Positions 35,623-44,409 of a stretch of 64,000 nt of DNA are shown here, piece after piece. The notes below the pieces were generated by a model that ran no database searches, was not told the DNA's origin, and saw only the letters and a program-made list of their open reading frames with translations. This stretch comes from Spirochaetia bacterium (GTDB lineage Bacteria > Spirochaetota > Spirochaetia > UBA9216): contig OY776510.1 in assembly GCA_963675665.1 (NCBI GenBank), forward strand, positions 3,840,001-3,904,000, read 5' to 3'. How positions within the stretch are numbered: position 1 is the first letter of the stretch; every line of letters begins with the position of its first letter. A program made the position numbers and the translations under genes.

Positions 35623-36579
35623 TCAAAAAAGATTAAAACCGATTTTAATGCCGGCTTTTAACTGAAACCGGTTTTTCTCAAAAAATGTCGGATCCAAAAA
35701 GTCTTTGAACATTGGTGCTTCCCAGCTTTTATCTTGCCAAAAATCACTGTAGGTTTTTGTAAATCGGGCATCAAGCAGATCAAGCCCCTCACAGAATATA
35801 CTGACGGAAACAAGGTTAGCCTGGCCCAGGAGTTCTTCGGACATAACAGTATACCCACGAAAAACAACAAAATCTGCACCCAGTCCGGAAAACCAGATGC
35901 CGTCGCTGCCGGACTGAGCTACACCATCCTTAATCCAGCCGGTACTGCTGCTGACGATTGAAACATAATGATTTACAATGTAAGCCTTGATAACCGGCAT
36001 ATATTTAAAAGGCAGACGGAATATAATCCCGTAGTACCATGACCATGCACCAGCCATGGGATCGGTCATCATAGTGTTTATCAGCGAATCGCCGTATTCA
36101 AAAACATCAAGCTTTTTCTGATCGTCAGCGCTTAATGAGCCCCCTTCATAGATAATTGCTTCCAATTCGGCAAGAATCTCCTCGTATTCCGTACACCTCC
36201 GGTAATGTTCAGAAAGATTTTTCTGGAAAGAATCTTTGTAATCAGAACCCCAAACCGGAGAGATTCCGATAAACGGGGCAATAAGCAGTCCTTTATTCAT
36301 AAAAACAAAAGGATTAATACCGGTTTCTATATATAAACCGCTGCCTAAACCGGAATAACCACCAAGTATTTCCGTTTTGTTTCCGATATCAAAATAAAAT
36401 ATGCCGACATTATTGTCCGGGTATAAATGAGATATAAAATCATCATCCATATCCAGAAATGAATAACCCGGGAACCCGAAGACCAGAGCTGGCGTTACAG
36501 CAAAGATAAAAATCAATAATAAAAAAAACGGTTTTTTTATTGCTTTCTGTCTTATTTTATCAAAATCGAATGTGCTCAT
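35623..36579 (-). CDS. Hypothetical exported protein, possible outer-membrane beta-barrel
   Basis: Signal-like hydrophobic N-terminus; Gly/aromatic-rich strands; C-terminal ...GIKIGFNLF. Confidence 0.6.
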   Translation of the reverse strand: MSTFDFDKIRQKAIKKPFFLLLIFIFAVTPALVFGFPGYSFLDMDDDFISHLYPDNNVGIFYFDIGNKTEILGGYSGLGSGLYIETGINPFVFMNKGLLIAPFIGISPVWGSDYKDSFQKNLSEHYRRCTEYEEILAELEAIIYEGGSLSADDQKKLDVFEYGDSLINTMMTDPMAGAWSWYYGIIFRLPFKYMPVIKAYIVNHYVSIVSSSTGWIKDGVAQSGSDGIWFSGLGADFVVFRGYTVMSEELLGQANLVSVSIFCEGLDLLDARFTKTYSDFWQDKSWEAPMFKDFLDPTFFEKNRFQLKAGIKIGFNLF

Positions 36580-36707
36580 ATTCTTCAATAAATATTTTTA
36601 TATTAACTCCTGTAAAAAACTTAAATCAGTTTCCCGTGGCTGTCAACTTTTTTATTTTGCAGTAATTATATGAATCTATTTGATCTGAATCCGATTGAAG
36701 ACGGTTT

Positions 36708-37457
36708 CTATAATGTTTTTACAAGCGAAACCAGTTCCGGCAATCCTGATATTATATTGGTAGAGTTCCGCTCTTTTCCTGTTTCACGGTTTTTCCCCAC
36801 AGTAAAATCAAGCGCCGTCTCATCCGTTCCGCGAACCAGCCGCTGAATCAGAACAGGTTTCATATTTGCTGCTTCAGCAGCAAGAATATCGTCTTCGGTA
36901 TCTCCTACATATACTATATCGGCTGCATCAAGCCCTGTTTCTTCCAGGGCCCGGACAAAAATCTCCGGATCCGGTTTCTTTACACCTACTTCCGCCGATA
37001 CAACAATAGTGTCGAAAAAACCGTCGAGATTATACTTTTCAAGATACTTCCTGACATGCCTGGGATGATCAAAATTACTGACAAGACCAAGGGTAAAATT
37101 ACTGTTTAATCTTTCCAGCGTCGGAACTGCATCAGGATCAGGTTCTATAAATTTTTGCCAGCTCTCAACCATTATATCTGCTGTCGATATAACATCGTTT
37201 ATTGAAACCTCCAGCTCTTCAGCCAGGGCCAGGTCAATAATCCTGTTTTCCAGCAATGTTAAATCTTTATTGATTACTGCGGGCTCTTCCCGTCCAAAAA
37301 ACTGATCACAGGCATTTGAAAAATCCTTCTTCGACATTTTAAGGCCGAGATCACTCAAGCAGGAATAAAATGTATTCAGCCAGACAGTCCATGCCTTTTT
37401 CATATCGCCATAGAGAAATAAGGTACCGTATAAATCAAAAAAGATTCCCCGTATCAT
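36708..37457 (-). CDS. HAD-superfamily hydrolase
   Basis: FDLYGTL, VSN, KKPDP, VGDTEDD. Confidence 0.9.
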   Translation of the reverse strand: MIRGIFFDLYGTLFLYGDMKKAWTVWLNTFYSCLSDLGLKMSKKDFSNACDQFFGREEPAVINKDLTLLENRIIDLALAEELEVSINDVISTADIMVESWQKFIEPDPDAVPTLERLNSNFTLGLVSNFDHPRHVRKYLEKYNLDGFFDTIVVSAEVGVKKPDPEIFVRALEETGLDAADIVYVGDTEDDILAAEAANMKPVLIQRLVRGTDETALDFTVGKNRETGKERNSTNIISGLPELVSLVKTL

Positions 37458-37626
37458 ATATTTTCCTTTCTGTTATCGCATTATATTTATAAAACTTTCT
37501 GTTTGCCGGATTATATATAATATACGGATCGCTATCAACCTGCAGAACCAATCGTCCGTGATACAAATCCTGTTCTACCGTAAAAAATGTCAAGAAAAAA
37601 GTTGGTAGTCACAATAAGTAAATTCC

Positions 37627-37635
37627 TGATATAAT
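37627..37635 (+). promoter_or_regulatory. Extended -10 promoter upstream of the riboswitch
   Basis: TGATATAAT (TGnTATAAT) about 13 nt before the aptamer. Confidence 0.6.
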
Positions 37636-37647
37636 ACTCAAGTATTA

Positions 37648-37744
37648 ATCTCCGAGCCGACTTTCCTAAGGGACTAACCTATGGAAACAGGCCGTCAGGT
37701 TGTACCGGAAACGGTACCAGCCCCCCGTGTTTGGAAAGGAGAGA
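37648..37744 (+). ncRNA. Moco/Tuco riboswitch (MOCO_RNA_motif), P3-less tungsten-cofactor variant
   Basis: CTCCGAGC...CCTAAG...TATGG-aaacag-GCCGT-CAGG...GTACCG-GAAA-CGGTAC...CCCCCGTGTTTGGAAAGGAG. Matches the moaA-leader conserved blocks, with no P3 insert between GCCGT and CAGG. Confidence 0.88.
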
Positions 37745-37867
37745 AAGTGAACTGTTGCCCATATCATCCCGTTATTTTTATCTCACCTGTGTTTATCTAC
37801 ATTGAAAACAACAAGCTACAGCAGCATCTCTCCCTGTCAAATAAATCCTATACAGCAGGTAAACCAG

Positions 37868-40048
37868 ATGAAATGCTCAATATGCGAATTACGATGTGAT
37901 GTTACTGAAACCTTTTTCGGCCGCTGCGGGATGTACGTCCTGAATGAAACTGAAATCGTTCCCCGTTTTGAAAACCAGATATCCTCTTTTACAGTCGGCC
38001 GGATTGAAGATGTTCCGATACTTCACTATTACCCCGGCAGCCTAACCCTTCTTGCCGGAACAGTGAGCTGTAATTTCGACTGTCCATACTGCGAAAACAG
38101 TTATATCGCCCGGGAATCGTGGGAAAAACTGTTCCGCTATCAGATATCTCCCCGGGAACTTGTGCAAAAAGCCCGTTCCCTGGAATGCATGAATATTGCC
38201 TTTAACGTGAACGAACCGGCCGTCTCCTTCCCGTACTTTCTTGAAACGGCCGCAACCGCCCGGTCCGCAGGGCTCCATGCCGGCTGCGCAACCAACGGTT
38301 ATTTTACACGTGAAGGAATTGAGACCCTTGCAGAAAACATCGACTTCGCCAATGTCAGCCTTAAATCAATCAGCGATGATTTTTACAAAAAATCCTGCCG
38401 TGTTCCCGGTGTCGCTCCAGTGATCAGGAATATCGACATTCTTCAACAGAAGGGTGTACATGTGGAGGTGACTACTCCCGTTACACCGGATATGAATGAA
38501 GAAGATATAGAAAAAATATCCGGAATTCTGGGCGGCATAAGCAGAGACATTCCCTGGCATATATTCTGGCTTCTGCCTGAATACAAGATGGAGTCAGATG
38601 ACCATGTGCCGGTTGAACGGCTTCTGGCCATGAAAGAAATTGCGCACAGCAGCCTTAATCATGTTTTTCTGGGCAACCTGGTGGGATCGGAATGGCTTGA
38701 TACAGCCTGTCCTGATTGCGGATCGGTCATTGTGAAGCGGCTCAATGCCATGGGCTGCGGCTGTCAGATTGTAGAAGACAATCTGAACGGAGGACTCTGT
38801 CCGAACTGCGGTTCGCCGGTCAGTTTGGAGGGCCCCCTTTCCCTTGAATTCGCAGCCGCGGATGATTCTGCGACGCAGTCCTGGAAAAAAGATCCGCTGA
38901 GCCTGGGCCTGCTGGATGTACACGGATATCAGAAACTTTTTGACTTCAGGACCGGCGAAAGAATGGAACACCCGTCGCCGATTATTTCGAAGGTAAAAAA
39001 GCTTATCAGCGGCCGGCCGTATCCCGGAGATCAGAAGCCCGAATCGGACACCTGGGTAACGGATCTTGCACTGGAAATGATGGACATCTACCAGCCGGAG
39101 CTTGTTGTCCTTGATTACGCCCAGGCATGGTTTCTGGCGGTTAATCAGCCGGACGGGAAGAAAGAGGCCTTTGACAATATTTTTTCCAATGTAAACAGAT
39201 TTCTCGACAGCACCGGATTTGAACCCATGGTTGTAGGCACCGGAGGATTTGAAACCGTCGAAAGAATCATCGATCTGGAAAAATACTTCAGGACTGAAGA
39301 GATAATCCTGTCCAGCGGCAAATATGCCTATTTCAACCGGTCGTCTATAAAGGACCTTTCACAGGAAATACTTCAGGAACTGTCCGATATCTGGGACCTG
39401 TATACCCGGGATGAATTCCTTGCCGGCCTGGAATCATCCTATTCCGACGACTTTGCCATGTATATACACGATTTCATTGCCGTTGCCAAACCTGGAGTAA
39501 TGTTCAAGGGATTGAGCAGTTTTATCCGGATTAACGACTACACTTCATCACTGGATCGTTACATTCCGGTATATACCACACTGGATATTCCGGAAGATAT
39601 TACCCGGGTGGTTCCCGTCTCCTGCGATGCTGTCCGATCCGGTAAAAAGGTGGCCCTGATCATTATAGAAGGAGCCGGCCTTTCGTCTTTCCCGTTTACC
39701 GGCACCGCAAAATGCAGAAACCACGACGGCCTTTATACATATCAGATGCATGAACAGTATATAAGCCTGGGGACAGGCACTCATTACAGCAGCAGTGATT
39801 TCCGTTTTCCACTGGGCAGGGATTACTGGCTCAGGGATTACAGACCCTATCCTTTTTCAGGACGATTTCACAGGTTCCTGCAGAATACCCCTCAAAAACG
39901 AACCAGCCCGTTAAAAAGCCTTTCGGTAGGAAACAGAAATATCCATACCCATGTCTGTCTTGAAGCTGATATATCTCTGGAATGCTACTGCTGCTACCAG
40001 CATAACTTCGGAACAATGGCCGTGTTTCATGAAGAAGCACTGACCTGA
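37868..40048 (+). CDS. AmmeMemoRadiSam-like radical SAM enzyme fused to a ~400-aa unknown (alkaline-phosphatase-superfamily-like?) domain
   Basis: N-terminal CxxC...C...C, radical SAM CNFDCPYC, NEP, TNGY, CPDCG/CPNCG zinc ribbon; long C-terminal extension. ATG 37868 preferred. Confidence 0.85.
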   Translation: MKCSICELRCDVTETFFGRCGMYVLNETEIVPRFENQISSFTVGRIEDVPILHYYPGSLTLLAGTVSCNFDCPYCENSYIARESWEKLFRYQISPRELVQKARSLECMNIAFNVNEPAVSFPYFLETAATARSAGLHAGCATNGYFTREGIETLAENIDFANVSLKSISDDFYKKSCRVPGVAPVIRNIDILQQKGVHVEVTTPVTPDMNEEDIEKISGILGGISRDIPWHIFWLLPEYKMESDDHVPVERLLAMKEIAHSSLNHVFLGNLVGSEWLDTACPDCGSVIVKRLNAMGCGCQIVEDNLNGGLCPNCGSPVSLEGPLSLEFAAADDSATQSWKKDPLSLGLLDVHGYQKLFDFRTGERMEHPSPIISKVKKLISGRPYPGDQKPESDTWVTDLALEMMDIYQPELVVLDYAQAWFLAVNQPDGKKEAFDNIFSNVNRFLDSTGFEPMVVGTGGFETVERIIDLEKYFRTEEIILSSGKYAYFNRSSIKDLSQEILQELSDIWDLYTRDEFLAGLESSYSDDFAMYIHDFIAVAKPGVMFKGLSSFIRINDYTSSLDRYIPVYTTLDIPEDITRVVPVSCDAVRSGKKVALIIIEGAGLSSFPFTGTAKCRNHDGLYTYQMHEQYISLGTGTHYSSSDFRFPLGRDYWLRDYRPYPFSGRFHRFLQNTPQKRTSPLKSLSVGNRNIHTHVCLEADISLECYCCYQHNFGTMAVFHEEALT

Positions 40049-40071
40049 AAAATAATGGAGGAGAATCTCAA

Positions 40072-41097
40072 ATGTTAAAACACAAAAAACCGGGATCATT
40101 TTCAAAATTCGTTCTTATCATCATTGTCATGAGTCTCACGGCATCCTTTGTGATGGCCGAAGGCAGAACAATATCCGACCAGACCGGCGCAGCCGTTACT
40201 TTACCGGACCAGGTCGACAGAGTGGTTACTGTCTACCCGATGGCGACACTCATTATCTACAGCCTGAAGGGCCAGGATAAAATTGTCGGAATTGATTCCA
40301 ACAGTCCGAAGAACAAGGTGCTTCAGGCCCTTGACGGGAATATCGAAAATATTACAAAAGTCGGGATGCCCTGGGAAGTAAATACTGAATCGGTTGTAGC
40401 AGTTGACCCGGATGTCGTAATAGGCGGATTCGGAGAGGTGCGGAATAACCTTGAAGCCCTTGGACTGCCTGTTATCGGACTTGACCTTGAGAGCCCGGAA
40501 AAACTCAAGGAAGGTATTCTACTTATAGGTGAATGCATCGGCAAAAATAAAGAAGCCGACGCGTTGATTGCTTATTATGACGAGAAAATGTCGTATATTT
40601 CCTCAAAAACAGCATCAATCCCGGAGAAAAAGCGCACCCGTGTTCTGATTCCGAACAAGACGGGGGTTAATTCATGTACCGGCGGAGATTCATATCAGAA
40701 CTTCCTTATTGAAGGGGCCGGAGGTATTAATGTAGCTGAAGCAATTACCGGACGCTGGCCGGAGGCTTCACTGGAACAGATTATGATCTGGAACCCGCAG
40801 GTTATTATTGTACCTCCGTACTGCGCGGAAACCGTTGATGACATTCTGGGCAATTCCGCCTGGGAAGATATCGACGCTGTTAAAAACAAACGCGTATTCG
40901 CCATGCCCGGCTATACCGTTGCATGGGACACTCCTGTAGCTGATTCATTTCTCGGAGAAATCTGGATTGCCGGGAAACTTTACCCTGAACTCTTTTCTGA
41001 TCTGGATTTTTCAAAGGAAGTAAAAAACTTCTACTCGGATTTCTACGGTATACACATGAGCAACAGTGACGTTGAGGCATTGCTGCTTTCCGATTGA
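40072..41097 (+). CDS. Class III (BtuF/FhuD/MolA-type) ABC substrate-binding protein
   Basis: Signal peptide, 'DQTGAAVTLPDQVDRVV', 'WEDIDAVKNKRV'. Confidence 0.9.
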   Translation: MLKHKKPGSFSKFVLIIIVMSLTASFVMAEGRTISDQTGAAVTLPDQVDRVVTVYPMATLIIYSLKGQDKIVGIDSNSPKNKVLQALDGNIENITKVGMPWEVNTESVVAVDPDVVIGGFGEVRNNLEALGLPVIGLDLESPEKLKEGILLIGECIGKNKEADALIAYYDEKMSYISSKTASIPEKKRTRVLIPNKTGVNSCTGGDSYQNFLIEGAGGINVAEAITGRWPEASLEQIMIWNPQVIIVPPYCAETVDDILGNSAWEDIDAVKNKRVFAMPGYTVAWDTPVADSFLGEIWIAGKLYPELFSDLDFSKEVKNFYSDFYGIHMSNSDVEALLLSD

Positions 41098-42134
41098 AAA
41101 ATATGATCGGACCGGAAACAACAAGGGAAAAGATTTCCGGTGTCAGAATATTTTTTCTGATACTGATTCCCCTCGGGCTGTTTTTGATTTCGCTCTTTAT
41201 CGGGCGCTATCCCCTCAGCCCGGGGGATATTATGAAAGCCCTTGGAGAGGTTCTTCTCTTCAGGGGCTTCAATGTCCCCAAAACTGTTTATACCATTCTT
41301 TTTAAAATACGCTTTCCCAGAACCATGACTGCGATGCTCATCGGGGCCGCCCTGTCTGTAAGCGGCGCTTCCTTTCAGGGAATGTTCAGGAACCCTCTTG
41401 TAAGCCCTGATGTTTTGGGGGTCTCGTCGGCAGCAGGATTCGGGGCCGCCCTGGCTATCCTTGCATCAGGAAATGCAGCTGTTATTCAGATAGCGGCCTT
41501 CGCCTTCGGAATAACAGGGGTAATTCTGACTTACGGGATAAGCCGTATCTACAAAAGCACCCCCGTTCTCATGCTTGTTCTGTCCGGGGTTGTTGTTTCG
41601 GCTTTTTTTTCAGCTCTTATTTCCGCGACCAAATTCATGGCCGATCCCTACGAAAAACTGCCTGCAATCACCTTCTGGCTGATGGGGAGCCTCAGCGGGA
41701 CAACCATGGAAGACATGCTTGCCGTTCTGCCCGCTATTGCAACGGGTCTTACGGGATTAATGCTGGTACGCTGGAGATTGAATGTCCTGGTAATGGGAGA
41801 TGAAGAAGCCCGTTCCCTCGGGATCAGAACGGAAATCCTGAAAGGGATTATTATTTTCTGCGCGACTATTGTTACTGCAGCCTCAGTATGCGTAAGCGGA
41901 ATGGTCGGTTGGGTCGGGCTTGTTATTCCCCATGTTGGGAGAATGCTTGTGGGGCCGGATCACAAGGTCCTGCTGCCCTCTTCGGCAGTCCTCGGAGCGT
42001 CCTACCTTCTTATAATCGATACCGTTGCCAGAACAGCCATCTCATCCGAGATCCCCCTCGGTATACTGACTGCTGTTATAGGGGCGCCCTTTTTCGCCTA
42101 TCTGATAAGAAAGACAAAAGGGGGCTGGCGATGA
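41094..42134 (+). CDS. FecCD/BtuC/MolB-type ABC permease
   Basis: IRFPR, FRNPLVSPDVLG, GWVGLVIPH, GAPFF. Confidence 0.93.
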   Translation: MKNMIGPETTREKISGVRIFFLILIPLGLFLISLFIGRYPLSPGDIMKALGEVLLFRGFNVPKTVYTILFKIRFPRTMTAMLIGAALSVSGASFQGMFRNPLVSPDVLGVSSAAGFGAALAILASGNAAVIQIAAFAFGITGVILTYGISRIYKSTPVLMLVLSGVVVSAFFSALISATKFMADPYEKLPAITFWLMGSLSGTTMEDMLAVLPAIATGLTGLMLVRWRLNVLVMGDEEARSLGIRTEILKGIIIFCATIVTAASVCVSGMVGWVGLVIPHVGRMLVGPDHKVLLPSSAVLGASYLLIIDTVARTAISSEIPLGILTAVIGAPFFAYLIRKTKGGWR

Positions 42135-43312
42135 CCGCTTTCCTTGAAATGTGCAACGGTTCCTATTCTTTCGGAGAACATCGGGTGCTGGATAATATCA
42201 GCTTTAAGGTCGGCGCAGGAGAGATTCTCTGCATCCTCGGAGCCAACGGCTGCGGAAAAACAACCCTGCTGAGATGTATCAACAACGGACTGGAGCTGGA
42301 TGCTGGTTCGGTTTATCTTGAAGGAAGGGATATCCGGACTATGGATGTGCTTGAAACGGCCCGTCAGATCGGTTTTGTATACCAGGAACATACAGCATCA
42401 TTTCCGTTTTCCGTGCTTGAAATTGTACGCATGGGACGTACGCCATACCTCGGGACCTTCGAATCGCCCTCGGACAGCGACACATTTATCGCGGAACAGG
42501 CCCTGGATATGGTAGGACTGCTTCATTATAAAAACAAACCCTACACAGAAATCAGCGGGGGGGAAAGGCAGCTGATCCTGATAGCAAGAACCCTGGCCCA
42601 GGATCCGAAAATCATCCTGCTTGATGAGCCGACATCGCATCTTGATTATAAAAATCAGCACATGGTCCTGAATATGATAAACCGGATGGCATCAGGAGGA
42701 ATAACAGTTATCATGACCTCGCATATGCCGAACCATGCGCTTTTTCATTCAAGCAGAACAGCCCTGATGCACCGGGGCAAGTTTATAGCTGAAGGCCCGC
42801 CTTCCGGGGTTATAACGGAAGCGAACCTTAAGACAATCTACGATATGGATGTAAAACTTCTTCAGGCCGGGAGTTCCGAAACAGATGATCCGATACGGTT
42901 CTGCCTTCCCGACTATTCTTCGTCAAACTCGATTGCTTCAGGCCTTCCGGGAGTCGAAACCCATTTCAGGGGATATTCCAGGGTCAGAAACGGTATCGCT
43001 GAAATTACCATTTCCGAGAATTTTATCCTGACATCTCTCTCCAGGAAAAGCGGAAATGTAAAAGTGACTATTCCTTCTGAGGGAATTCTCCTTTCCCCTG
43101 TTCCTTTTCTCAACAACAGTTCCCATCTTTTCCAGGGACATATCAGCAGTATTGGAGATAACGGCAAGGGAAAAGAATTGCTGGTTTGTATCTCAGGACA
43201 TCCGATCAGGCTCATGCTTTCAGAAAAAATAATCGAATCAATGAAATTAAAAGAAAACACAACTGTGTATCTGGGCTTCAAACATTCAAAGATCACCAGC
43301 GTTTCTTGTTGA
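42131..43312 (+). CDS. FepC/MolC-type ABC ATPase with C-terminal TOBE-like extension
   Basis: GANGCGKTT, ISGGERQ, LDEPTSHLD; C-terminal 'FQGHISSI...MKLKENTTVYLGFKHSKI' resembles TOBE. Confidence 0.88.
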   Translation: MTAFLEMCNGSYSFGEHRVLDNISFKVGAGEILCILGANGCGKTTLLRCINNGLELDAGSVYLEGRDIRTMDVLETARQIGFVYQEHTASFPFSVLEIVRMGRTPYLGTFESPSDSDTFIAEQALDMVGLLHYKNKPYTEISGGERQLILIARTLAQDPKIILLDEPTSHLDYKNQHMVLNMINRMASGGITVIMTSHMPNHALFHSSRTALMHRGKFIAEGPPSGVITEANLKTIYDMDVKLLQAGSSETDDPIRFCLPDYSSSNSIASGLPGVETHFRGYSRVRNGIAEITISENFILTSLSRKSGNVKVTIPSEGILLSPVPFLNNSSHLFQGHISSIGDNGKGKELLVCISGHPIRLMLSEKIIESMKLKENTTVYLGFKHSKITSVSC

Positions 43313-43377
43313 TTACCCCGTATTTGCATATATCTGTTTAACCGTCAGACTCATAAAACATACGGTAAAAGGCAGAA

Positions 43378-44262
43378 CTACTGAAGCACCCAACCCAGGT
43401 CGGCAACTGCCCCGGTCAAAGCCTCTTCCCAGGCGGCCCGGATTTCCGGGTCATCCCAGGTTGCCAGGTGACTGCCCCCTGCAACAGGGTACAGCTTTGC
43501 CGTGTTCCCGGCCTCATTCATCATTCCGACGAATTCCTCGGTGTAGCGAAACGGCAGAATATCATCTTCGACGCATTGGGTCATATATACCGGCGGAAGT
43601 CCGGGCCGGACATTCTGATAGGGCGAGCAGTTTTTTGCCTCCCCGCGGCCTATCAGAAGCTGTTTGAAATTATAATCGTTGACGTTTACCGCCCCCGCAA
43701 CCGTAAAAACAGCATTGGGCACGGAACTTGTTCCCGGATTCTCGGACGGGTCAATATACTGCGGGAACATGGCTGTACAGAGAGCCAGATGTCCGCCCGC
43801 TGAATCTCCCATAGCCGCAATGTGATCGGTATCGATATTAAACTTTTTACTGTATACCCGGGCCCATCGTACCGCTGAATTCGCATCCATCATCAAATCC
43901 ATAACACTGATTTTATTATGGTCGGCAAGCCGGTACTGTGCCGCAATTCCTATAAATCCCATACCGGCCATATACCGGGCATTATCCTGGGCCCATTCCA
44001 TTTCGGCCCGTATCCAGCCTCCCCCGCAGAAGTTTACAACTGCAGGATACGGTTTTATACGATTGGCATCATAGCCTTCAGGATAAAAAATATGCATTTC
44101 AAGCTTTCCATCAGGGGTTTCCTTGTAGTAGCAGGCATAATCGGCGAGATCAGCAGTCGCGTTGGAAACCGGTTCATTAATCAGGTATGGGCTGTGTTCC
44201 TCACCTGTACTTACGCAGGCTAAAACCGACAATAAAATCACTGCAGAAATTACGAATTTCAT
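43378..44262 (-). CDS. Alpha/beta hydrolase (esterase/lipase, BD-FAE-like) lipoprotein
   Basis: Lipobox VLAC, GGGW, GDSAGG, D...H triad. Confidence 0.85.
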   Translation of the reverse strand: MKFVISAVILLSVLACVSTGEEHSPYLINEPVSNATADLADYACYYKETPDGKLEMHIFYPEGYDANRIKPYPAVVNFCGGGWIRAEMEWAQDNARYMAGMGFIGIAAQYRLADHNKISVMDLMMDANSAVRWARVYSKKFNIDTDHIAAMGDSAGGHLALCTAMFPQYIDPSENPGTSSVPNAVFTVAGAVNVNDYNFKQLLIGRGEAKNCSPYQNVRPGLPPVYMTQCVEDDILPFRYTEEFVGMMNEAGNTAKLYPVAGGSHLATWDDPEIRAAWEEALTGAVADLGWVLQ

Positions 44263-44409
44263 ATTTACCCCCTGTTGGACGCTGTCCGCAAGCGTCATTC
44301 ATTTACAACCTTTGAACCTGTATTATCAAAACCGCCGGACAATGTTGTGTCCAATAATGTTCGACAAATATCAGAAGTCAGGCAACCGTACCAGTAGAAC
44401 GCGTTCCGG

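Follow-up and report, generated by a model that had tools for sequence, protein, structure and literature searches.

The window analysed here, positions 3840001–3904000 (64 kb) of the single-contig genome (5.15 Mb, 43% G+C) of a Spirochaetia bacterium (contig OY776510.1), contains a four-gene operon led by a riboswitch of the Moco class. Gene 1 encodes a two-part protein, in which a radical S-adenosylmethionine (SAM) domain is joined to a C-terminal domain that belongs to no Pfam family and is referred to here as the orphan domain; the two parts together are called the pair. Genes 2–4 encode an importer, comprised of a class III binding protein, a permease, and an ATP-binding cassette (ABC) ATPase. 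Taken together, this is probably a tungsten/molybdenum-starvation operon, with a conserved enzyme pair that would act on the metal species after uptake. The operon is linked to these metals by several separate lines of support: the class of its sensor, the affinity of its importer to MolA/HI1470, the ModC-type fold of the ATPase tail, and the genes that neighbour the gene 1 family in other genomes.

The four genes are co-oriented, tightly packed, and translationally coupled (coordinates in Table 1). This arrangement of a radical SAM fusion, a Peripla_BP_2 protein, a FecCD permease, and an ABC ATPase had been described in an initial annotation made from the sequence alone, and is confirmed here. 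Gene 2 starts 23 nt past the stop codon of gene 1, behind a GGAGGAG ribosome-binding site, and there are 4-nt overlaps at the gene 2/3 and gene 3/4 junctions. Gene 4 begins at 42131, where its ATG shares the sequence ATGA with the stop codon of the permease gene; a start listed at 41888 for this open reading frame (ORF) falls inside the permease gene and is not the true start. The scan for terminator-like sites found none after the operon.

The sensor was identified with a covariance model. In an Rfam scan of all 64 kb of the window, RF01055 was the sole match at gathering score (58.3 bits against a gathering score of 36, E 2.1e-11), and it covers model positions 1–135, i.e., the full model. 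In the cmscan alignment the columns of the P3 hairpin, located between P2 and P4, are deleted. The aptamer without P3 proposed in the initial annotation was thus recovered and, judged by its architecture, it is a P3-less, Tuco-type Moco RNA. P3-less Moco RNAs have been reported to correlate with the use of a tungsten cofactor (PMC2408646). The extended -10 promoter proposed earlier, TGaTATAAT at 37627–37635, is likewise present 3 nt before the aptamer, with a -35-like TAGTCA or GTCACA 16–18 nt 5' of it. The promoter scan returned 3 promoter-like sites compared to 2.0 ± 1.5 in shuffled sequences, so that the match by itself is no better than chance; it is the place of the element, directly before the aptamer, that makes it credible.

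ViennaRNA folds suggest how the sensor might control gene 1. The 3' strand of P1, GGAGAGA (37738), could alternatively pair with UCUCUCC (37827), and a CAUCU...AGAUG hairpin can mask the start codon of gene 1 when UCUCUCC is unpaired. Such an alternative pairing suggests translational control, a guess made from the predicted fold, and the fold of 37720–37880 is not more stable than shuffled sequences (z 0.40). Since no terminator-like site was found in the scan 3' of the aptamer, occlusion of the gene 1 start codon would be the likely switching mechanism.

Gene 1 encodes a protein of 726 aa. Its N-terminal half matches Pfam Radical_SAM (PF04055, aa 65–217, 71.5 bits), and the best-scoring family over aa 1–318 is that of the AmmeMemoRadiSam enzymes (TIGR04337), matched along nearly the whole profile at 169.6 bits, under the cut-off of 220. 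The likeness to these enzymes extends to a Cys-rich N-terminal stretch (four Cys in aa 1–20), a CX3CX2C motif (C68, C72, C75), and two C-terminal Cys pairs (C281/C284 and C311/C314); the Cys of the motif and of both pairs are invariant across 15 homologues. By the same profile, a paralogue of gene 1 in this genome scores 136.4 bits, the split form of the protein found in homologous locus L027 scores 170.6 bits, and a stand-alone member encoded elsewhere in the genome (3370051–3371010) scores 287.4 bits. AMMECR1 (PF01871) and Memo (PF01875) have one genomic match each, at 2900646 and 3119671, far from the window, from each other, and from this stand-alone member. The absence of both genes from the locus, remarked upon in the initial annotation, is therefore correct. 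Because the score of gene 1 is below the cut-off, and AMMECR1, Memo, and the true TIGR04337 member are all encoded elsewhere, gene 1 is placed in a sister clade of the AmmeMemoRadiSam enzymes, outside that system. It differs from them in that its partner is the orphan domain rather than AMMECR1 or Memo, and in that a riboswitch of the molybdenum/tungsten class leads the gene.

The orphan domain (aa ~331–726) found no family in a Pfam search, and its profile gave nothing credible against PDB sequences (best E 0.45). An exhaustive HMMER search of 1.84 billion representative proteins returned 112 matches, 47 of them at E ≤ 1e-30; the 112 representatives are mostly stand-alone proteins of ~380 aa, with a minority of ~730-aa fusions. 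Full-length gene 1 is rare, with 25 matches in a word-indexed search of 5.8 billion clusters, and the most specific names given to these are 'radical SAM protein' and 'PFL activating enzyme'. Invariant residues of the domain are YPGD 385–388, W396, S664, S684, G688, R690, T694, E705, and C706. In most relatives the two parts of gene 1 are separate adjacent genes; their fusion into one protein in the window suggests that the two domains work together.

An AlphaFold2 model of the orphan domain (26 sequences) has a predicted local distance difference test score (pLDDT) of 88.6 and a predicted template modelling score (pTM) of 0.90. The best structural matches in two independent aligners are nucleotide pyrophosphatases/phosphodiesterases (NPP) and phosphonoacetate hydrolase, with which there is no relation at the sequence level. 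In Foldseek these enzymes rank first, weakly (top match 1ei6, E 7.8e-4, template modelling (TM) score 0.31). In VIA-align, the top 8 rows are all from the alkaline-phosphatase superfamily, with Z 9.3 to 6.8 on a scale where unrelated models often reach 7–8: 1ei6 has Z 9.3 and a root mean square deviation (rmsd) of 3.5 over 203 aa, ENPP6 8.7, ENPP7 8.5, and Xac NPP 8.3, and these rows are followed by generic RecA-like domains at Z about 6. The alignment spans only the C-terminal ~250 residues (~60%; chain residues ~150–407) of the reference enzymes, and so leaves their nucleophile-bearing strand unmatched. The predicted fold may thus be called remotely alkaline-phosphatase-like, and the domain at most a candidate member of the superfamily.

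Genes 2–4 follow the MolABC-type layout, in which one operon encodes a Peripla_BP_2 protein together with a FecCD permease and an ABC ATPase. The gene 2 protein has an N-terminal hydrophobic signal or anchor segment and no lipobox Cys. Its two nearest solved relatives (4hn9, 4.3e-45; 4ovk, 3.5e-43) carry generic names only. The third is HI_1472 (3.3e-41), which we take to be MolA, the binding protein of Haemophilus MolBC-A, and BtuF follows at about 2e-9. The best solved prokaryotic importer ATPase for gene 4 is HI1470 (2nq2_C, 6.1e-43). The initial annotation had left the importer as BtuF/MolA-type; by these comparisons it is MolA/HI1470-like rather than BtuF-like. In one orthologous operon (L021), the binding protein has three N-terminal S-layer homology (SLH) domains (L021:10324–11913), and would be anchored to the cell wall or S-layer and not by a lipid.

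The ATPase differs from HI1470 in its C-terminus. The solved HI1470 chain has 253 aa and no C-terminal regulatory domain, while the window ATPase has a 140-aa tail of the TOBE type. The TOBE-like C-terminus seen in the initial annotation holds for the predicted fold, and not for the Pfam profiles of this domain. The model of the tail (pLDDT 82.5) was built from a 3-sequence alignment, and a sequence search with the tail region returned the query alone. In Foldseek, the best match is ModC of Methanosarcina acetivorans (3d31_A, E 6.9e-7, TM 0.74, rmsd 2.0, 122 columns), followed by ModG and ModE (1h9j, TM 0.72; 1b9m and 1o7l, TM 0.62) and then by the ATPases of sugar, polyamine, and sulfate importers. 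The TupC-like and WtpC-like ATPases of the same genome have TOBE domains that Pfam recognises, and the second half of the tail can be aligned with these; a Lys of the tail (K131) is invariant in 5 sequences. S-x-R-N is the anion-binding motif of TOBE/Mop domains; it is kept in the L021 and L035 orthologues and in the TupC-like ATPase, and the window tail has SSHL.

The context of the gene 1 family was examined in a first set of 17 full-length homologue loci (L021–L037), taken from contigs of one genome per species. MolABC-like genes adjoin 10 of the 17 (L021, L022, L023, L024, L026, L028, L030, L034, L035, and L037), and a same-strand Moco RNA is found upstream in six (L021, L023, L024, L026, L028, and L030). 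For L022, L034, and L037 the sequence ends too near upstream for the presence of a Moco RNA to be judged. L030 is the same contig place as G091:C15:240881–242050, from the window's own genus, and is not an independent lineage. The closest orthologous operon is L035, with 63–72% identity per gene. Directly 3' of it, a P3-containing Moco RNA precedes genes for an O-methyltransferase, a class III binding protein, and DUF364/DUF4213 (L035:14536–17925), a family labelled 'putative heavy-metal chelation'.

Other loci of the first set carry different uptake or regulator genes. In L027 and L029, the pair is encoded by two overlapping genes directly 3' of an MFS_MOT1 molybdate-permease gene. In three Desulfovibrio-like loci (L025, L033, and L036), it is located 3' of genes for a TonB-dependent receptor and an ECF-type double ATPase. 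L031 is adjoined by a divergent gene for an HTH + PBP_like regulator, the C-terminal half of which matches that of a MoeA-fusion family; this regulator presumably resembles the tungstate-responsive regulators of sulfate reducers. The neighbours of L032 are uninformative. Genes for SAM-dependent methyltransferases recur beside the pair (L031, L033, L035, and L015:4281–4916, the last in the window's own genome).

A second set of contexts comes from the Syntrophomonadaceae, the family of Syntrophomonas wolfei, where the orphan domain was found in 29 of 107 genomes (33 matches). Twenty stretches, with 21 of the 33 matches, were used; the remaining matches are on short contigs or are fragments, and 1 of the 21 copies is cut by a contig end. 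Eleven of the 21 copies are behind a same-strand Moco RNA. Four more are divergent from a string of binding-protein, permease, ATPase, and radical SAM genes, and about 200 nt away from the Moco RNA at its head; with these, 15/21 copies are tied to a Moco RNA. MolABC-like genes adjoin 14/21. In L145, L146, L147, and L151, the riboswitch is followed immediately by a gene for the orphan domain alone, and the stretch contains no radical SAM gene; a gene for a ModA/WtpA-like binding protein comes next in L151, with an FmdE gene convergent to it. All Syntrophomonadaceae aptamers examined are P3-less, in contrast to the P3-containing aptamers of L021 and L030. Many Moco RNAs were noted earlier in Desulfitobacterium and Syntrophomonas, together with genes of unknown function in such operons (PMC2408646).

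The initial annotation had proposed a test of whether homologues of gene 1 co-occur with Moco RNAs, with this type of ABC importer, and with genes for tungsten enzymes. The first two associations hold across several lineages, and other genes for molybdenum/tungsten uptake and its regulation join them; the third does not, since no homologous locus examined has aldehyde:ferredoxin oxidoreductase (AOR), FOR, FDH, or moa/moe/mob genes beside the gene 1 relatives.

In the window's own genome, the regulon extends well beyond the operon. There are 11 RF01055 matches genome-wide, 8 without P3 and 3 with P3, and those with P3 lead the WtpA system, a Big_5/FecCD operon, and the operon of the gene 1 paralogue (Table 1). 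Five of the 8 Peripla_BP_2 proteins of the genome are encoded behind a Moco RNA, and the same five are the top BLAST matches of gene 2. The orphan domain has two copies in the genome, each in an importer operon led by a Moco RNA. The second copy is part of a 750-aa protein (genome positions 2536708–2538960), 32% identical to gene 1 over its full length, and is the last gene of an operon with a P3-containing Moco RNA, a double binding protein, a FecCD permease, and an ATPase. Since both this paralogous operon and the 57%-identical orthologue L021 have P3-containing aptamers, the module is wired to both sensor types, and the Tuco label of the initial annotation applies to the window aptamer and not to the module as a whole. 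The simple rule that P3-less aptamers precede tungsten genes and P3-containing ones molybdenum genes does not apply cleanly to this genome, where a WtpA-type binding protein, named for tungstate, is behind a P3-containing aptamer and an Oxidored_molyb-like gene is behind a P3-less one.

Table 1. Features of the riboswitch-led operon (window numbering) and related sites elsewhere in the genome (genome numbering, with locus numbering in brackets).
Feature	Position	Strand	Evidence or remark
Promoter-like site, extended -10	37606–37635	+	TG 37627–28, TATAAT 37630–35; 10/12 consensus matches
Moco-class riboswitch aptamer without P3	37638–37757	+	RF01055, 58.3 bits
Putative expression platform	37738–37870	+	ViennaRNA folds, inference only
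Gene 1 (whole)	37868–40048	+
Gene 1, N-terminal half, AmmeMemoRadiSam-like radical SAM domain	37868–38857	+	Pfam, NCBIfam
Gene 1, orphan 396-aa domain (aa ~331–726)	38858–40048	+	No Pfam family; AlphaFold2 model
Gene 2, class III (Peripla_BP_2) binding protein, MolA-like	40072–41097	+	Pfam, 121 bits
Gene 3, FecCD/BtuC-type permease	41094–42134	+	Pfam FecCD, 295 bits
Gene 4, ABC ATPase, 393 aa	42131–43312	+	ABC_tran, 111 bits; HI1470-like core
Gene 4, tandem TOBE/Mop-type tail, ~140 aa	42890–43309	+	Predicted fold
591-aa radical SAM/binding-protein-like fusion and methyltransferase gene	555309–557733 (L015:2492–4916)		
Moco RNA before ferredoxin and AOR genes	1792195–1792314		P3-less
Moco RNA before NAD-type aldehyde dehydrogenase gene	2460130–2461671 (L017:7601–9133)	-	P3-less; Aldedh, 484 bits
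Moco RNA directly before purB-guaB-purA-guaA-like genes	3452594–3458600 (L012:1–6004)		P3-less; 78.4 bits
Moco RNA before TupA-like ABC system with TOBE ATPase			
Moco RNA before WtpA system with TOBE ATPase			P3-containing; WtpA 439 bits, cut-off 355
Moco RNA before sugar-type binding protein and Oxidored_molyb-like genes			P3-less
Moco RNAs before five FecCD-type importers			Window operon included

Three of these sites deserve comment. The riboswitch-led aldehyde dehydrogenase might stand in for AOR without needing tungsten. It is unusual for a cofactor-sensing RNA to control genes of purine nucleotide synthesis; GTP is the precursor of the pterin. At the AOR site, a TD-2 RNA match (Rfam, 63.6 bits, gathering score 48.7; L004:1421–1519, forward strand) is found on the strand opposite to the riboswitch, overlapping its 3' end by 19 nt.

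The genome also encodes a third radical SAM paralogue (TIGR04337, 105 bits), which is fused in a 591-aa protein to a domain resembling class III binding proteins. A methyltransferase gene comes after it, an IS110-type transposase gene adjoins, and the unit is convergent with a riboswitch-led importer operon. The importer operon of the riboswitch site at 561938 has a separate 307-aa radical SAM gene (L015:6735–7658, reverse strand) between its binding-protein and permease genes. This gene was rejected as a relative of gene 1; it is unrelated and BioB/HmdB/PylB-like, with all scores below cut-off.

How might such an operon work? When the metal-pterin cofactor is plentiful, it would bind the P3-less aptamer and switch expression off, as the aptamer class implies. 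When the cofactor is scarce, the MolABC-like type II importer would be made. The secreted class III binding protein would pass tungstate or molybdate, or a bound form of either, to the FecCD permease, with the HI1470-like ATPase driving transport, and the ModC-like fold of the tail suggests that cytoplasmic oxyanion could inhibit the pump. Gene 1 would provide a cytoplasmic two-part enzyme, made of a radical SAM domain that is sister to AmmeMemoRadiSam and of the orphan domain. In known enzymes, alkaline-phosphatase-like architecture holds tetrahedral oxyanions. The pair accompanies four uptake routes (MolA-like, ModA/WtpA-like, MOT1-like, and TonB/ECF), and the orphan domain alone can be a riboswitch target; for these reasons, the pair is placed in the cell, acting on the metal species after uptake. 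There, it might convert the incoming metal to a form usable for the cofactor, for example by stripping sulfur or organic ligands. The partner genes of the pair are uptake and regulator genes, so 'acquisition' describes it better than 'cofactor maturation' does.

A more specific proposal can be made tentatively, and is possible rather than probable: the pair may carry out an unrecognised step of tungsten/molybdenum assimilation between uptake and pterin insertion, in which the thio-metalate or ligand-bound metal of sulfidic, organic-rich habitats is turned into a cofactor-competent oxyanion, and the riboswitch-led 'iron complex' importers would then be importers of tungsten/molybdenum. The hosts of the pair are strict anaerobes of sulfidic or methanogenic habitats, and conversion of thiolated or ligand-bound metal is one reasonable guess at the reaction. 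Thio-molybdate was reported to serve as a molybdenum source for at least one methanogen, in a paper that does not mention the gene 1 family (PMC11484787).

Several observations weigh against a metal-starvation operon with a metal-processing pair. No Moco RNA is present upstream of the closest orthologous operon, L035, even at E ≤ 1; none was found at gathering score in 7/17 loci of the first set, and none in the stretch for 5/21 Syntrophomonadaceae copies (among the five is L144, on the same contig as L032). The genomes are related, so the counts describe a pattern and not independent trials. On the side of the importer, the Pfam TOBE profiles (PF03459 and PF08402) gave no match up to E 10 with gene 4 or with its tail alone, and because SSHL replaces S-x-R-N, oxyanion sensing may be altered or lost in the window. 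The alkaline-phosphatase-like match of the modelled orphan domain is weak, and omits the nucleophile-bearing part of the reference enzymes. Finally, an organic chelate would account for the TonB receptors, the recurrence of methyltransferase genes, and the class III binders better than a bare oxyanion would.

The last point leads to the strongest mechanistic rival, in which the importer takes up tungsten or molybdenum bound to an organic chelator. In some genomes jointly with a methyltransferase, the pair would then either make the chelator or break the ligand down in the cytoplasm so that the metal is released. Radical SAM haem-degrading enzymes, encoded beside haem importers, are a comparable case. 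Judged by family names, most ligands of class III binding proteins and FecCD permeases are chelates or cofactors, and the fusion of the third radical SAM paralogue to a class III binding-protein-like domain suggests contact with the ligands of such domains. Nevertheless, a metallophore route is unlikely here. HI_1472, the relative of gene 2, was reported to bind bare molybdate and tungstate (PMC4031551), the TOBE tail indicates an oxyanion signal, and the pair also adjoins oxyanion transporter genes of the MOT1 and ModA/WtpA types. Furthermore, there are no exporter genes or recognisable chelator-synthesis genes in the window. The main published rival concerns the transporter: an iron-chelate importer under cofactor control could adjust the supply of iron to the needs of iron-rich tungsten enzymes. 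Two Tuco-led 'Fe ABC-type' operons of Eubacterium limosum, fetABC1 and fetABC2, were read in this way, in work that also reported about 12-fold more cellular iron on lactate (PMC11725836), and the best NCBIfam matches of the window subunits are haem, ferric-citrate, and siderophore families, all below cut-off. Yet a switch that is turned off by the bound cofactor would cut iron uptake just when tungsten enzymes are made, and the increase of FetABC1 under tungsten limitation in the same work (PMC11725836) fits metal scavenging at least as well. Gene 2 is closer to HI_1472 than to binders of haem, siderophores, or B12, the gene 4 tail matches molybdate-binding domains first, and the gene 1 family also adjoins MOT1, ModA/WtpA-like, and PBP_like-regulator genes. 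Iron uptake is therefore an improbable function of the operon.

Two further explanations dispense with the uptake of the metal itself. The importer could salvage a molybdopterin-type cofactor or precursor from other cells, with the phosphodiesterase-like and radical SAM domains trimming it, e.g., from its dinucleotide form. Large cofactors, among them B12 and haem, are indeed ligands of class III binders, the orphan domain comes closest in fold to nucleotide pyrophosphatases/phosphodiesterases and phosphonoacetate hydrolase, and the ligand of the sensor class is the cofactor itself. Salvage is nonetheless very improbable, given that no moa, moe, mob, or cofactor-using enzyme genes are found beside any homologue examined, that partners of the oxyanion type (the TOBE tail, MOT1, and ModA/WtpA-like proteins) favour metal over pterin, and that the weak structural match does not extend to the nucleophile region. 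Alternatively, the gene 1 protein could be a tungsten-independent stand-in for a tungsten-dependent reaction, switched on when the cofactor is scarce, with transporter operons only incidentally nearby. The aldehyde dehydrogenase gene behind a P3-less Moco RNA in the same genome looks like just such a backup of AOR, and three loci have a stand-alone orphan domain behind the riboswitch with no transporter beside it. We regard cofactor sparing as the least probable explanation of all: uptake genes beside the pair in 24 of 38 loci or copies (10/17 and 14/21), and uptake genes of other types in several more, are hard to explain by it.

The reading preferred here, a tungsten/molybdenum-starvation operon with a metal-processing pair, combines elements of known systems. 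The importer resembles MolABC of Haemophilus influenzae (HI1470/HI1471/HI1472) in its class III binding protein, FecCD-type permease, and ATPase. However, MolABC has no radical SAM partner, whereas the window operon has a radical SAM gene and a leading riboswitch. MolBC-A was reported to bind molybdate and tungstate and to transport them with low affinity, its regulator not being known (PMC4031551). The ATPase tail superposes best on the regulatory domain of ModC from Methanosarcina acetivorans ModBC (3d31), a type I importer with trans-inhibition. The permease of ModBC is of type I and its binding protein of the ModA type, while in the window a regulatory domain of the same kind would be found on the ATPase of a type II (FecCD) importer.

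In its control, the operon resembles fetABC1 and fetABC2 of E. limosum, where P3-less RF01055 aptamers are located before ABC importers annotated as iron transporters (PMC11725836). Five P3-less riboswitches were described in that species, two of them before 'Fe ABC-type' operons, and were read as co-regulation of the iron supply; the term 'radical SAM' does not occur in the main text of that paper (PMC11725836).

The composition of gene 1 also invites a comparison with anaerobic sulfatase-maturing enzymes, which are radical SAM maturases paired with alkaline-phosphatase-fold proteins in anaerobes. Sulfatase maturases belong to the SPASM type, and their target is a Cys/Ser-x-Pro-x-Arg motif. 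Gene 1 combines a radical SAM domain with a predicted, remotely alkaline-phosphatase-like fold, but neither SPASM nor the Cys/Ser-x-Pro-x-Arg motif is seen there. By analogy, the idea may be raised that the radical SAM domain of gene 1 modifies its fused partner.

Taken singly, the riboswitch, importer type, and regulatory domain are already known. What appears to be new is that a radical SAM enzyme, paired with an orphan domain of remotely alkaline-phosphatase-like fold, is a conserved member of molybdenum/tungsten regulons. The TOBE-type tail on the ATPase of a type II importer also appears to be new, as do the paralogous copies of one module under P3-less and P3-containing sensors in a single genome. 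In the literature searched, which covered few subscription journals, no paper was found that links AmmeMemoRadiSam-like enzymes or the orphan domain to molybdenum or tungsten, or that describes a TOBE-tailed type II importer ATPase or dual-sensor copies of a module; the term AmmeMemoRadiSam appeared there once each in 6 papers, none with a title on the function of the enzyme.

How anaerobes obtain tungsten and molybdenum when the metals are scarce, thiolated, or complexed is poorly understood. The known routes consist of ModABC, TupABC, WtpABC, MolABC, and MOT1-type carriers, followed directly by insertion of the MoeA type. The pair described here travels with tungsten/molybdenum carriers and a cofactor-sensing riboswitch in syntrophs, Chloroflexota, sulfate reducers, and the window's organism. 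If the pair does act on the metal, an extra step would be added to the textbook pathway. This would also give a first functional context to a sister clade of the long-orphan AmmeMemoRadiSam enzymes, and would mean that widespread 'iron' ABC importers need to be re-annotated and that the recent claim of tungsten riboswitches regulating iron uptake needs to be re-read. The question is testable in cultivable hosts, e.g., Syntrophomonas wolfei or relatives of the window's organism.

Genes on the opposite strand flank the operon on both sides, with a HAD hydrolase gene at 36708–37457 and an esterase gene at 43378–44298. Between a CorA gene and the HAD hydrolase gene, a 321-aa ORF (35623–36588, reverse strand) has no Pfam or NCBIfam match. 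The G+C content is 47–50% in the operon (window positions 37000–44000), compared to 35–40% in the 6 kb upstream and 43% genome-wide. The best relatives of the operon (57–63% identity) are found in Chloroflexota-labelled and unclassified genomes, and a search of 401 genomes from the window's class found the orphan domain in only two, that of the window and its congener G091. The high G+C content of the operon, its Chloroflexota-labelled relatives, and this narrow distribution hint at a possible horizontal acquisition.

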